From Gammaproteobacteria bacterium (GTDB taxonomy: Bacteria > Pseudomonadota > Gammaproteobacteria > Ga0077536): a stretch of 64,000 nucleotides of DNA. Both the position numbers and the translations under genes were made by a program. Location of the stretch: NCBI GenBank assembly GCA_030830685.1, contig JAURMM010000016.1, positions 11,723-75,722 on the forward strand, read 5' to 3'. Shown in pieces: positions 17,448 through 21,370 of the stretch (the stretch's first letter is position 1; each line of letters begins with the position of its first letter). The notes below the pieces were generated by a model. It did not search any database and was not told where the DNA came from. It saw nothing but the letters and a program-made list of their open reading frames with translations.

Positions 17448-17648
17448 ATGGGTCTGACACGTGTTCTCTTGATCGCTCTGGTGGTGTGGCTGGCTTTGGT
17501 CTTCATCCGTCGCCAGCTCGGCCAGATGCGGCGCCGGCCAGAGCAAGCACAAGCAAGGCTCGTGCGCTGCGCCCGGTGCGGGATTTATCTGCCGGAATCG
17601 GAAACCAAGCCTGATGCGAATCAGGCGAGAATCTGTGCCCATCACTGA
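17448..17648 (+). CDS. Small membrane-anchored zinc-ribbon protein (PP_0621-like family) upstream of pilS
   Basis: 66 aa: hydrophobic helix 'VLLIALVVWLALVFI', basic linker, then 'CARCGIYLPESE...' with a terminal 'CAHH'. Position immediately 5' of pilS matches a small conserved protein family seen upstream of pilS in pseudomonads (from memory). Its end overlaps the pilS 5' region. Confidence 0.5.
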   Translation: MGLTRVLLIALVVWLALVFIRRQLGQMRRRPEQAQARLVRCARCGIYLPESETKPDANQARICAHH

Positions 17649-19332
17649 AAAGAACGCCACACCTGGCACGATGGCCTACGCACCTGCGGAGTCCATCCCC
17701 TTGTCGGCAACATCGGCAGACCCGGGACGGGGAAACCCCGTGCTGAGCCCGGACATCCCCACTTCGCGCAACGTCTGGATTGCGCTCCGCCTGTTCAACC
17801 TTTATCGGTTGATAGTGGCCGGTCTTTTCGCGCTGCTCGGCGGCCTGGCGCGGCTGCCACCCGCATTTGGCGACTTCAACCAGCAGACCTTGGCCTGGAT
17901 TGCCGGCAGTTATCTCTTTGGCGCAATCGTGCTGCAGATAGCGATCGAGCGCCGGGTGTTGCCGTTCTTTGCCATGCGCAACCTGCTGGTGAGCCTCGAT
18001 GTGGCAGCCCTCGTGCTCATCATGCATGCGAGCGGCGGACCTTCCGGCGGTTATGGCGTGCTGCTCGTGGTGGCAATTGCCGGTGCCTGTCTGGTCTCCG
18101 CCCCGCGCGCCTCGGTGGCCTTTGCCGCAATCGCCTCGCTCGCCGTGCTCGCGGAGACGGCCATCGGGCACAGCACCCACGCCTTTGGCCAGGACAGCTA
18201 CACCCAAGCCGGCTTGCTCGGTATTGCACTCTTTGCCACCGCAGTCCTGTCTTCGATTCTCGCCACCCAGGTCCGCCGCAGTGAAGAGCTCGCTGCCGAG
18301 CGCGCGCTGGCCATCGCCCAACTCTCGCGGCTGAATGAGTACGTCGTGCAGCGCATGCGTTCCGGCATCATGGTGCTGGGGGAGGATTCTCGCATCGTAC
18401 TGAGCAATGCCGCAGCGAGACGCATGCTCGGTGGCACCTCAGAGCCCGCGCTGGACGCGTCCCTGCGCGAGGCTCTTTTTCGCTGGCGTGCGCGTAGCGA
18501 AAACCGTAAGACTCCCTTGAAGCTCGCAGGCGGTGAGGAGGTCATCCTGTCCTTCAGTCGGCTCGGTGAGGGCGGTATGGGCGATACCTTGGTGTTCCTC
18601 GAAGATGCGGCAGAGATTCAGCAGCGTGCGCAGCAGATCAAGCTAGCCTCGCTCGGCCGGTTGACGGTAAGCATCGCGCACGAAATCCGCAATCCTCTGG
18701 GCGCCATCAGCCAGGCCGGCCAGTTGCTGGCCGAAGATGCGGATCTCGCGCCCGGCAATGCAAGGCTCGCCCACCTCGTGGTGGAGCAGTCTGCCCGCGT
18801 GAACGAGATCATCAAGAACGTGCTGACTCTGGGGCGCAGGCAGCCCTCGGCTGTAGAGTCCTTCGCACTTGCCGACTTCGTGCGCAAGTTTTCGGAGAGC
18901 TTCCGTGAGCGCCACGCACTGGACGTCTCAGCATTGCATATCGATTGCTTGGAACCCGATCTCCGGGTGCAGATGGATCTCGGTCATCTGGAGCAGGTGC
19001 TTTGGAATCTCTGCGACAACGCTTTGCGCCATGGTCGAGCTGTGGACAACGGCACGTTTCTTCTGACCCTGCGCTGCGGTGTGCACAGCGAAAGCGCCAG
19101 ACCATGGCTCGAAATCCAGGATTCGGGGCGCGGTATGACGGACGAAGTTGCGCAGCAGATATTTGAACCCTTTTTCACGGGCGTCATGGGTGGGACCGGG
19201 CTCGGCTTGTATCTCTCGCGGGAACTGTGTGAGGCCAACCAGGCCAGCCTTGCGCTGCTAGCCCATGATGCGCGGGGCTGCTGCTTCCGGATTCTTTTCG
19301 CGCATCCGGATCGGCAACTGCTGAGCGCATAA
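17614..19332 (+). CDS. pilS: Sensor histidine kinase PilS
   Basis: N-terminal polytopic membrane domain ('LFNLYRLIVAGLF...'), HisKA 'SIAHEIRNPLGAI', HATPase ('DNALRHG', 'GLGLYLSREL'). Paired with pilR. An alternative start at MAYAPA (17671) is possible. Confidence 0.88.
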   Translation: MRIRRESVPITEKNATPGTMAYAPAESIPLSATSADPGRGNPVLSPDIPTSRNVWIALRLFNLYRLIVAGLFALLGGLARLPPAFGDFNQQTLAWIAGSYLFGAIVLQIAIERRVLPFFAMRNLLVSLDVAALVLIMHASGGPSGGYGVLLVVAIAGACLVSAPRASVAFAAIASLAVLAETAIGHSTHAFGQDSYTQAGLLGIALFATAVLSSILATQVRRSEELAAERALAIAQLSRLNEYVVQRMRSGIMVLGEDSRIVLSNAAARRMLGGTSEPALDASLREALFRWRARSENRKTPLKLAGGEEVILSFSRLGEGGMGDTLVFLEDAAEIQQRAQQIKLASLGRLTVSIAHEIRNPLGAISQAGQLLAEDADLAPGNARLAHLVVEQSARVNEIIKNVLTLGRRQPSAVESFALADFVRKFSESFRERHALDVSALHIDCLEPDLRVQMDLGHLEQVLWNLCDNALRHGRAVDNGTFLLTLRCGVHSESARPWLEIQDSGRGMTDEVAQQIFEPFFTGVMGGTGLGLYLSRELCEANQASLALLAHDARGCCFRILFAHPDRQLLSA

Positions 19333-19339
19333 TTGCGGC

Positions 19340-20680
19340 ATGATGGCTTGCGCACTCATTGTCGACGATGAGCCCGCCCTGCAGGAGCTGGTGGCGATCA
19401 CCCTTGGCCGCATGGGAGTCGAGTGCGTCGGCGCGGCTGATCTCGCGGCAGCCCGACGCGAACTCGCAAAACAGCGCTTTGATTTCTGTCTGACCGATAT
19501 GCGGCTCCCGGATGGTAATGGCCTGAGTCTCGTGGAGTACATCCAGCATCATTACGCCGGACTTCCGGTGGCGGTGATCACGGCGCATGGCAGCATGGAA
19601 GCCGCAATCGAAGCGCTCAAGGGAGGCGCTTTCGACTTCGTGAACAAGCCGGTGGATATCAATGACCTGAGAAGCTTGGTCGCCCAGGCCTTGAAAGTCC
19701 CACCGCAGGAAACCCGGGGGCTGACCGCGGACCGTGGCCTCATCGGCAAGTCTCCGGCCATGGCCCAACTGCGCGAGAAAGTGCGCAAGGTTGCGCGCAG
19801 CCAGGCTCCGGTCTACATCAGTGGTGAGTCCGGTACGGGCAAGGAGCTGGTGGCAAGACTCATCCATGCCCAAGGCCCGCGAGCTGCGGGCCCGTTCGTG
19901 CCGGTGAACTGCGGCGCGCTGCCTCCGGATCTGGTGGAAAGTGAATTGTTTGGTCACCTCAAGGGAAGCTTCACCGGCGCCACCACGGATCGGCCGGGGC
20001 TTTTCCAAGCGGCGCAGGGCGGCACCTTGTTTCTGGACGAAGTGGCAGACCTGCCGCTGCCGATGCAGGTGAAACTGTTGCGTGCCATTCAGGAAAAGAG
20101 AGTCCGGCCCGTGGGTGCGGCACAGGAGGAGGCGGTGGACTGCCGGATCCTCTCGGCGACCCACCAGTCGCTGTCCGAGCTGGTTGCCGCGGGGCGTTTC
20201 CGTCAGGACCTCTTTTATCGCATCAACGTGATCGAATTGAGAATACCGCCCCTGCGTGACCGCGGTGAGGATGTGCTGCTCATCGCTGAGCATTATCTGC
20301 AGGGGCTGGACGCGGACGGGCGCTCACTGGTGCTGGATGAGGGCGCGCGGGCGGCGCTTCGCGCGTATCCCTTCCCTGGCAATGTCCGAGAGCTGGAAAA
20401 CATCCTGGAGCGGGCTGCGGCCCTGTGCGAGGACGAAGCAATAGGCCTTGACGCGCTGCAACTGGAAGACACATCTTTTTTGCTGATGGCTGACTCAAAG
20501 TCTGACCGCCGCGAGGTGGAGGACAAGGCCTTGGCTCCCGATGAGCGCGCCCGGCTGCTGGAAGCGCTGGAAAAAACCCGCTGGAACCGGACCAAGGCCG
20601 CGCAACTGCTGGGAATGACTCTGCGCGCCCTGCGTTACCGCCTGGGAAAGCTGGGGCTGGATCAGGACGATACGTCATAA
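19340..20680 (+). CDS. pilR: Sigma-54-dependent response regulator PilR (NtrC family)
   Basis: Receiver domain (D at 'LTDMRLPDG'), AAA+ sigma-54 activator core ('GESGTGKE', the GAFTGA variant 'GSFTGA', 'ESELFGH') and a C-terminal HTH. Confidence 0.92.
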   Translation: MMACALIVDDEPALQELVAITLGRMGVECVGAADLAAARRELAKQRFDFCLTDMRLPDGNGLSLVEYIQHHYAGLPVAVITAHGSMEAAIEALKGGAFDFVNKPVDINDLRSLVAQALKVPPQETRGLTADRGLIGKSPAMAQLREKVRKVARSQAPVYISGESGTGKELVARLIHAQGPRAAGPFVPVNCGALPPDLVESELFGHLKGSFTGATTDRPGLFQAAQGGTLFLDEVADLPLPMQVKLLRAIQEKRVRPVGAAQEEAVDCRILSATHQSLSELVAAGRFRQDLFYRINVIELRIPPLRDRGEDVLLIAEHYLQGLDADGRSLVLDEGARAALRAYPFPGNVRELENILERAAALCEDEAIGLDALQLEDTSFLLMADSKSDRREVEDKALAPDERARLLEALEKTRWNRTKAAQLLGMTLRALRYRLGKLGLDQDDTS

Positions 20681-20708
20681 AATGACGTAATTGTCATAAA
20701 GTGACGTG
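20672..20708. promoter_or_regulatory. Tandem palindromic elements ACGTCATAAAATGACGT / TTGTCATAAAGTGACGT; candidate PilR enhancer (UAS) for pilA
   Basis: Perfect 7-3-7 palindrome at 20672-20688 and an imperfect copy 19 bp later (20691-20707), seen directly. They lie about 110-145 bp upstream of the sigma-54 -24 element. The TGTC-containing repeats are reminiscent of P. aeruginosa PilR sites. The first copy overlaps the pilR stop codon. Confidence 0.4.
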
Positions 20709-20816
20709 GACTGGGCCGCCAGAATGGACGTGGTAGGCTTTGTTAAGAACATTAAAGCCCACGCGCAGCGAGGCTTTCTGCGCCAGGGGCGGCGCACTAG
20801 CATGACCTCATGCAAC

Positions 20817-20832
20817 GGGCACGCTATGTGCA
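20817..20832 (+). promoter_or_regulatory. Sigma-54 (RpoN) -24/-12 promoter of pilA: GGGCACgctatGTGCA
   Basis: GG at 20818-19 and GC at 20830-31 with canonical spacing. Matches TGGCAC-N5-TTGCW at 9 of 11 fixed positions. Lies about 95 nt upstream of the pilA ATG; the RBS AAGGAG is 7 nt before the ATG. Confidence 0.6.
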
Positions 20833-20926
20833 GTGACTGCTGCAAGGCGCAGGTCAACCTGGAGTCCAAGGGAATGGGCCAACCGTGCGACCGGGAACTC
20901 AATACAAACTCTTAAGGAGCATCACC

Positions 20927-21370
20927 ATGCGCAGCATGCAGCGCGGTTTCACACTTATCGAACTCATGATCGTGGTGGCAATCATCGGCATTCTGGCCGC
21001 GGTCGCCATTCCGGCGTATCAGGATTACACCATTCGCGCGAAAGTGACGGAGGGCTTGGGCCTTGCGTCCGCCGCCAAGACATCTGTGTCCGAATACTTC
21101 ACCAGCGAAGGCACGCTACCGACCAATAACACGCAGGCTGGCTTACCAAGCGCTAACTCCGTCAAGGGGAATAATGTCCGGTCTGTGTCTGTCAAGGATG
21201 GGAATGTGACTATCACGTTCAATTCGAAGACGCCACAGATCGCCTCTCGGACGCTGATCCTGCGGCCAGGCACCGCCGCTGGAAGCGTAACTTGGTCCTG
21301 CACGGCGGGTGGAGACGACACTATTGCCAACAAGTACCGTCCGTCAAATTGCCGAAACATCGGCAGTTAA
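20927..21370 (+). CDS. pilA: Type IVa major pilin PilA (prepilin with 7-aa leader MRSMQRG)
   Basis: '[40 protein letters not shown]' has Gly-1, Phe+1 and Glu+5. Ser/Thr-rich alpha-beta loop. C-terminal disulfide loop C...C followed by 'RNIGS', ending in Ser. Strong RBS upstream. Confidence 0.9.

Follow-up and report, generated by a model that had tools for sequence, protein, structure and literature searches.

How the pilin gene of a pilS-pilR-pilA locus is switched on, and from which sequence signals, is the question raised by a 64,000-nucleotide stretch of DNA from a Gammaproteobacteria bacterium (assembly GCA_030830685.1, contig JAURMM010000016.1, positions 11,723 to 75,722), which is called the window throughout. 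The three genes follow one another on the plus strand, pilR and pilA (ATG at 20927, stop at 21370) being separated by a gap of 246 bp. PilR-activated and RpoN-dependent expression of pilA has been established in Pseudomonas, Xanthomonas (X. oryzae), Lysobacter (L. enzymogenes), Myxococcus and Geobacter (PMC6058289, PMC7170775, PMC8035640, PMC6211767, PMC2725144). The original prediction for the window was that pilA is served by a sigma-54 promoter, about 110-145 bp upstream of which lie paired PilR sites, a proposal which is supported by the gene content of the locus and by phylogenetic footprinting over 33 loci; the pilR-pilA intergenic region is very probably a pilin promoter dependent on PilS/PilR and sigma-54 and provided with a PilR enhancer.

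A regulator pair and a target gene of the kinds that such a promoter calls for are encoded at the locus. PilS, whose gene lies directly 5' of pilR, has the six-helix PilS membrane domain, and PilR has the receiver, AAA+ sigma-54-interaction and Fis-type helix-turn-helix domains, all of them recognised by Pfam. The loop of PilR reads GSFTGA, which is the usual form of the family (138 of 160 related pilR loci), and the gene served by the predicted promoter combines the Pilin and N_methyl domains of a type IVa major pilin. NCBIfam holds no PilR-specific model, and the window PilR matches its generic NtrC/AtoC-type models only, all of them below cut-off.

The most distinctive feature of the intergenic region is a set of short repeats at the end of pilR. 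The first repeat, ACGTCATAAAATGACGT (20672-20688, ACGTCAT-AAA-ATGACGT), had been described as a perfect palindrome; its 7-bp inverted arms are indeed perfect, but they are separated by a 3-nt AAA centre, and the 17-mer is not fully self-complementary. The second repeat, TTGTCATAAAGTGACGT, lies at 20691-20707 and starts 19 bp after the first one, in agreement with the phasing initially claimed. The TGTC core attributed to both copies is present in the second repeat, the first one having CGTC. Four half-sites of alternating orientation can be read in the two repeats, namely GTCA (20674-77), TGAC (20683-86), GTCA (20693-96) and TGAC (20702-05), with start-to-start spacings of 9, 10 and 9 bp. Of these, the three nearest to the promoter constitute a core which is widely conserved among relatives, and the window has a fourth, extra half-site upstream. 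The pattern GTCAYNNNRTGAC has just two matches on both strands of the 64 kb, GTCATAAAATGAC (20674-86) and GTCATAAAGTGAC (20693-705), against an expectation of 0.17, two matches being reached in 1 of 100 shuffles; further, the only array of three half-sites in the window is that of the pilR-pilA region. The coordinates originally given for the repeats, the -24/-12 element, the AT-rich patch and the pilR stop all proved correct.

The conservation of this arrangement was examined with PilR as the query. Scanning one genome per species gave 80 loci at 52-69% identity, and an independent scan of metagenomes gave 80 further loci, the highest identity to the window PilR being 69% in the first scan and 80% in the second. 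The composite pattern TGAC-N5-8-GTCA-N4-6-TGAC was then searched in 1.22 Mb (genomes plus window) and 0.59 Mb (metagenomes) of sequence, counting both strands. The best match of the genome collection (L001, CAMATU010000021.1, PilR 69% identical) is a pilS-pilR-pilA locus with a sigma-54 pilA promoter; its record, titled Klebsiella pneumoniae, is that of a metagenome-assembled genome and looks like a mislabelled or contaminated bin.

In the genome collection, 23 of the 80 loci have a pilin gene 3' of pilR with a similar gap, and all 23 carry TGGCAC-N5-YTGC 77-143 bp before the mature N-terminus of the pilin. The composite array precedes a sigma-54 element and a pilin gene in 16 genome loci, as well as in the window, and does not occur in the genome loci away from the region upstream of pilA. 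Among the metagenomes, 17 loci have the array, 16 of them with a sigma-54 element and a pilin gene, the contig of the remaining one (L114) ending before the pilin; apart from reverse readings, the remainder consists of one array cut by the contig end (L097) and of three minus-strand cases without a pilin in the fetched DNA (L101, L118, L160). The PilR proteins of the 33 array-bearing loci from the two collections are 53-80% identical to that of the window.

Position as well as sequence is conserved across these distant loci. Counted from the T of TGGCAC, the half-sites TGAC, GTCA and TGAC of the relatives cluster at -135, -124 and -115, and those of the window are found at -143 (GTCA), -134 (TGAC), -124 (GTCA) and -115 (TGAC). 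Measured from the first TGAC, the GG of the -24 element comes after 134-137 bp in 28 of the 33 loci, after 125-126 bp in three and after 144-146 bp in two; in the window the GG follows the TGAC at 20683 by 135 bp, as in the relatives. The distance between enhancer and promoter is thus quantised in steps of one helical turn, implying a strict face-of-helix requirement for activation by PilR in these lineages. Moreover, the array of one locus (L077) is found 2.4 kb downstream of pilR, yet 223 bp before the mature N-terminus of the pilin. Loci of Xanthomonas, Lysobacter, Thermomonas and Novilysobacter, in which pilR and pilA are not neighbours, also have GTGAC-N7-GTCAC dyads upstream of pilA promoters of the form TGGCACG-N4-CTGC. 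By these sequence comparisons, the array tracks pilA and not the 3' end of pilR.

The closest relative found, L081, whose PilR is 80% identical to that of the window, offers a finer view of which bases are kept. It has the same GTCA-N5-TGAC-N6-GTCA-N5-TGAC architecture, and the extra upstream half-site and the spacing of N6 (not N7) between the first two core half-sites are common to the window and L081. Over the 36-bp array the two sequences differ at six positions, all of them in spacers or flanks, and the 16 core bases are identical (16/16); by a hypergeometric estimate, random placement would leave the core bases free of differences in about 2% of cases. The stretch at 20708-20740 is poorly conserved between the two. 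Further downstream, TGCAAGGCGCAGG (20841-53), around the predicted start of transcription, and a 31-nt leader block, CCAAGGGAATGGGCCAACCGTGCGACCGGG (20866-96), are almost identical in L081, with a 14-nt indel between these two leader blocks.

The -24/-12 element, GGGCACGCTATGTGCA (20817-20832), is a more delicate matter. It has the exact GG-N10-GC spacing and agrees with the consensus TGGCAC-N5-TTGCW at 10 of 12 positions, and it had been called a near-consensus RpoN promoter; the essential GG-N10-GC is intact, but the element deviates at two positions which are invariant, or occupied by pyrimidines only, in 23 relatives. A scan of the window with the -24/-12 consensus returned 14 matches with up to two mismatches against 15.5 expected, which is not above chance, and the sigma-54 consensus alone was rejected as evidence. 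Within the intergenic region, GGGCACGCTATGTGCA is by far the best candidate when scored with a matrix built from the promoters of the 23 relatives (5.2 bits, against -5.4 for the next one), and, given the register of the enhancer, the probability of an equally good site arising by chance within the 5-position span of the relatives is about 2e-4 to 1e-3. Taken by itself the -24/-12 match is weak, and it becomes convincing through its position and conservation only.

Several observations weigh against a PilR- and sigma-54-dependent promoter at this place. On the matrix of the relatives, the 5.2 bits of the window element compare with 13.4-28.7 bits for their own sites, and 33 of the 127,960 window positions score as well as GGGCACGCTATGTGCA. 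The element has a G in place of the T of TGGCAC, which is invariant in the 23 relatives, and another G in place of the pyrimidine at -15. At a fixed place, exactly 31 bp before the T of TGGCAC, many relatives of the Woeseiaceae type have a sequence resembling the site of the integration host factor (IHF), with 8 of 9 positions matching WATCAANNNNTTR (consensus quoted from PMC7962754); the window has no such sequence. Finally, the dyads of the window are CGT-N9-ACG and TGT-N9-ACG, and not the TGT-N11-ACA or TGT-N11-AGA of P. aeruginosa, so that no site of the P. aeruginosa type is present.

These weaknesses lend themselves to the reading that the enhancer is real and the degenerate -24/-12 element is dead, with pilA transcription supplied by read-through from pilSR or by a promoter that has escaped recognition. 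The low score is in line with it, as is the absence of a terminator between pilR and pilA. It is nevertheless unlikely, given that the essential GG-N10-GC has lost neither bases nor spacing and the 135-bp enhancer register is kept, while no sigma-70-like promoter was found on the plus strand between 20300 and 21600. The unusual element (GGGCAYGCTATGTGCA) is also retained in L081 at 18 of 19 positions, as GGGCATGCTATGTGCA and at the same place, despite the divergence of the neighbouring sequence.

A second alternative accepts the repeats as operators and assigns them to another regulator, of the PhoB type, of the CRP/Clp/Vfr type or some other dimeric factor, with PilR binding at another place, if at all. 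TGTCAT is similar to a Pho-box half-site, and GTGAC contains the CRP half-site GTGA. The Pho box is described as CTGTCAT repeated directly, with an AT-rich linker of 4 bp, and the pilin gene has been reported as a common target of Clp and PilR in Rhodanobacter by DNA affinity purification sequencing (DAP-seq) (bioRxiv 10.64898/2026.06.06.730518). Against such an assignment, no Pho box (CTGTCAT repeats with an 11-bp period) with up to three mismatches exists anywhere in the window, and the GTCAT copies, unlike those of a Pho box, have inverted half-sites between them and lie at a distance of 19 bp. TGTGA-N6-TCACA with up to three mismatches is likewise missing from 20672-20707, a single match with three mismatches (20741-56) being at chance level. 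The half-sites are inverted and spaced by 9-11 bp, forming neither 11-bp direct repeats nor GTGA-N6-TCAC. Moreover, the array stands in strict helical register with a sigma-54 promoter, which needs an enhancer-binding protein, and PilR is encoded alongside in most loci; operators of a different factor are on these grounds very unlikely.

That the palindromes act instead as RNA, as a stem-loop terminating or stabilising the 3' end of the pilSR transcript, is highly improbable: the 51-nt RNA 20665-20715, at the very end of pilR, does form a nested hairpin (-15 kcal/mol, z = -3.4 against shuffles), but the middle of its stem is A/U-rich, it is followed by no U-tract and a plus-strand scan found no intrinsic terminator, the 4-nt cores are invariant with no co-variation at the fifth arm position (GTCAG/GTGAC, GTCAC/CTGAC and GTCAA/GTGAC are all seen), the half-sites of most relatives are odd in number (three), and the array stands at a fixed distance from the pilA promoter and not from the pilR stop, being present even upstream of pilA genes which do not adjoin pilR.

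If the repeats are a PilR enhancer, their overlap with pilR calls for an explanation. The stop codon TAA (20678-20680) lies inside the spacer of the first repeat and abuts the first half-site, and the original prediction had seen in this a conceivable autoregulatory coupling. The window PilR ends in ...KLGLDQDDTS (20666-20680), which is five residues (QDDTS) past the usual ...KLG(I/L)(E/D) terminus of the relatives, L081 included, and it is because of this C-terminal extension that the reading frame overlaps the enhancer. Among the relatives the relation between stop and array is variable, ranging from overlap through gaps of 2-110 bp to 2.4 kb: in L003, L004, L007 and L013 the pilR stop TGA itself starts the first TGACA half-site, and in L081 the stop precedes the array by 11 nt. 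Since the overlap is not conserved, nothing supports a conserved coupling of pilR translation or termination to the operator, and the arrangement is best explained by tight packing plus a five-codon extension of pilR in this genome. At most, it is conceivable that bound PilR acts as a roadblock to read-through transcription.

The spacer between enhancer and promoter includes the AT-rich stretch already pointed out at 20738-20760, with about 65% A+T in a window of 62% G+C. Its proposed role as an IHF bend site finds no support in the sequence. With the IHF consensus WATCARNNNNTTR, the best match between the enhancer and the -24 element (20708-20816) reaches 6 of 9 positions, and the count of such matches, four where 2.15 are expected, is at the chance level; at -31, where many relatives have their IHF-like sequence, both the window and L081 are G+C-rich. 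What is conserved is GTTAAGAAC of the AT-rich block, which L081 alone shares at the same position (-75), and GTTAA was rejected as a generally conserved spacer motif, its conserved position being limited to the window and L081. By this comparison of sequences, the AT-rich block is a lineage-specific conserved element; it may be the site of a bending or nucleoid-associated protein, and it is conceivable that IHF itself binds to the window spacer with relaxed specificity. The combination of a missing IHF box at -31 with the mid-spacer AT block GTTAAGAAC suggests that the window lineage may have a different bending solution. The AT-rich sequence TGTTAAGAACATTAAA (20741-20756) also matches TGTGA-N6-TCACA at 7 of 10 positions, a chance-level resemblance.

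Taking the intergenic region as a PilR- and sigma-54-dependent promoter, the following sequence of events can be proposed, in which PilR as the binding protein, the need for RpoN, a transcription start at about 20843 and the bending of the spacer are all predicted from sequence. Dimers of phosphorylated PilR would bind to the four GTCA/TGAC half-sites (20674-20705), which, being about one helical turn apart, would face the same side of the DNA and allow PilR to assemble there into an active AAA+ oligomer. The spacer of about 110 bp would then loop, bringing the oligomer into contact with the closed complex of RNA polymerase and sigma-54 at GGGCAC-N5-GTGCA (20817-32), and ATP hydrolysis would open the promoter, with pilA transcribed from about 20843.

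Several known systems invite comparison. Among them are the loci of Woeseiaceae, Steroidobacteraceae and related uncultured Gammaproteobacteria (L003-L160), which resemble the window in gene order, in a TGAC-N6/7-GTCA-N5-TGAC array about 135 bp from the GG and in the GSFTGA loop. The relatives differ from it in their canonical TGGCACG-N4-TTGCT promoters, often with the IHF-like WATCAANNNNTTR at -31, the window having a weaker -24/-12 element and no IHF-like site. Two forms of the PilR site have been quoted for P. aeruginosa, TGT-N11-ACA and TGT-N11-AGA, the latter with GTCT elements nearby (PMC8035640, PMC6058289). The pilA promoter of that species (Ishimoto & Lory 1992; Jin, Ishimoto & Lory 1994) resembles the window in its -24/-12 element, in several sites, some 100 bp or more upstream, from which PilR acts (as is predicted for the window), in the GTC/GAC core and in a periodicity of about 10 bp. 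In the window, by contrast, the half-sites alternate in orientation, only one of them having TGTC, and pilA lies directly 3' of pilR, with the enhancer overlapping the pilR stop. The P. aeruginosa sites were reportedly defined by Jin et al. in 1994 as four tandem repeats of (N)4-6(C/G)TGTC, a number of sites which the window array shares.

The enhancers of NtrC and NifA (glnAp2, and the nifH upstream activating sequence TGT-N10-ACA) are, as is predicted for the window array, dyad sites for dimers with a Fis-type helix-turn-helix, at least two sites being needed for oligomerisation; they lie 100-150 bp upstream, depend on the face of the helix and frequently have an IHF site in the spacer. The window departs from them in its GTCA half-site, in its shorter dyad (TGT-N9-AC) and in a continuous periodicity of about 10 bp in place of two separated 17-bp sites. 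Geobacter sulfurreducens and Myxococcus xanthus, which belong to distant phyla, are likened to the window by gene order and by the regulation predicted for it, both having pilA directly 3' of pilR and a PilR-activated, RpoN-dependent promoter (PMC2725144, PMC6211767).

A study of Lysobacter failed to find the P. aeruginosa consensus in its PilR target and considered that the Lysobacter site had perhaps diverged (PMC8035640). From its sequence and position, the GTGAC-N7-GTCAC dyad upstream of pilA in Lysobacterales may be this missing Lysobacter PilR motif; no PilR motif is given in the text of the papers based on DAP-seq and on SELEX. It is possible, if still doubtful, that the array represents a previously undescribed grammar of PilR operators common to Woeseiaceae, Steroidobacteraceae, Lysobacterales and the lineage of the window, in which GTCA and TGAC alternate, one per helical turn, locked at 125, 135 or 145 bp from the -24 element, unlike the tandem or TGT-N11-ACA site of P. 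aeruginosa.

Downstream of the promoter, the leader of pilA gave few indications of regulation. Rfam recognised no family within 20600-21000, and the predicted folding of the 5' untranslated region is unremarkable (z = 0.5). The GGA-containing leader motifs and the AAGGAG ribosome-binding site might be sites of the CsrA/RsmA type. The pilA leaders of the Woeseiaceae type (L003-L025, L082-L100) carry a block GTACAGGCG-N4-6-GCCGT at +5 to +30 past the -12 element, which the window lacks. A hairpin can be drawn through this block in the leaders of the relatives but was rejected, as RNAalifold gave no consensus structure and a helix drawn by hand had no covariation beyond that of controls.

The features of the locus are collected in Table 1.

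Table 1. Genes and predicted regulatory elements around pilA (window coordinates)
Feature	Position	Strand	Basis or remarks
sucD, sucC		-	precede pilS in the window
pilS, sensor histidine kinase	17614..19332	+	Pfam 6TM_PilS PF25323 (1.8e-31), HisKA, HATPase_c
pilR, sigma-54-dependent response regulator	19340..20680	+	Pfam Response_reg, Sigma54_activat (7.4e-69), HTH_8
Putative upstream activating sequence, four alternating half-sites	20672..20707		uniqueness in the window and conservation in relatives
AT-rich spacer block	20738..20760		core GTTAAGAACATTAA at 20742-20755
Predicted sigma-54 -24/-12 element GGGCACGCTATGTGCA, weak variant	20817..20832	+	GG 20818-19, GC 20830-31
Predicted pilA 5' untranslated region	20843..20926	+	start inferred from GG/GC spacing; AAGGAG ribosome-binding site 20914-19
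pilA, type IVa major pilin	20927..21370	+	Pfam Pilin PF00114 (1.7e-25), N_methyl PF07963 (2.4e-10)

Directly 3' of pilA, two plus-strand open reading frames (21487-23451 and 23379-25340) encode paralogues with 35% identity over 450 residues. Both are about 650 residues long, have a translation of hydrophobic, membrane-spanning appearance and share an N-terminal FxFDD motif. Neither gave a Pfam family above threshold or an NCBIfam family, the second one having a weak match to the tetratricopeptide repeat in its C-terminal part, below the Pfam cut-off. They are followed by GT2 and GT4 glycosyltransferase genes on the opposite strand, and the paralogues may themselves be pilin glycosyltransferases.

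As regards the wider meaning of these results, the control of pilin genes by PilS/PilR and RpoN is textbook knowledge, and the understanding of pilin regulation is left unchanged. What is modestly new is a cleanly defined and widely conserved grammar of half-sites together with its helical register. For the organism itself, which has no close sequenced relative, the analysis provides a confident regulatory annotation of its pilin gene and, beyond it, a model of half-site operators in fixed register could predict PilR regulons in many environmental Gammaproteobacteria.

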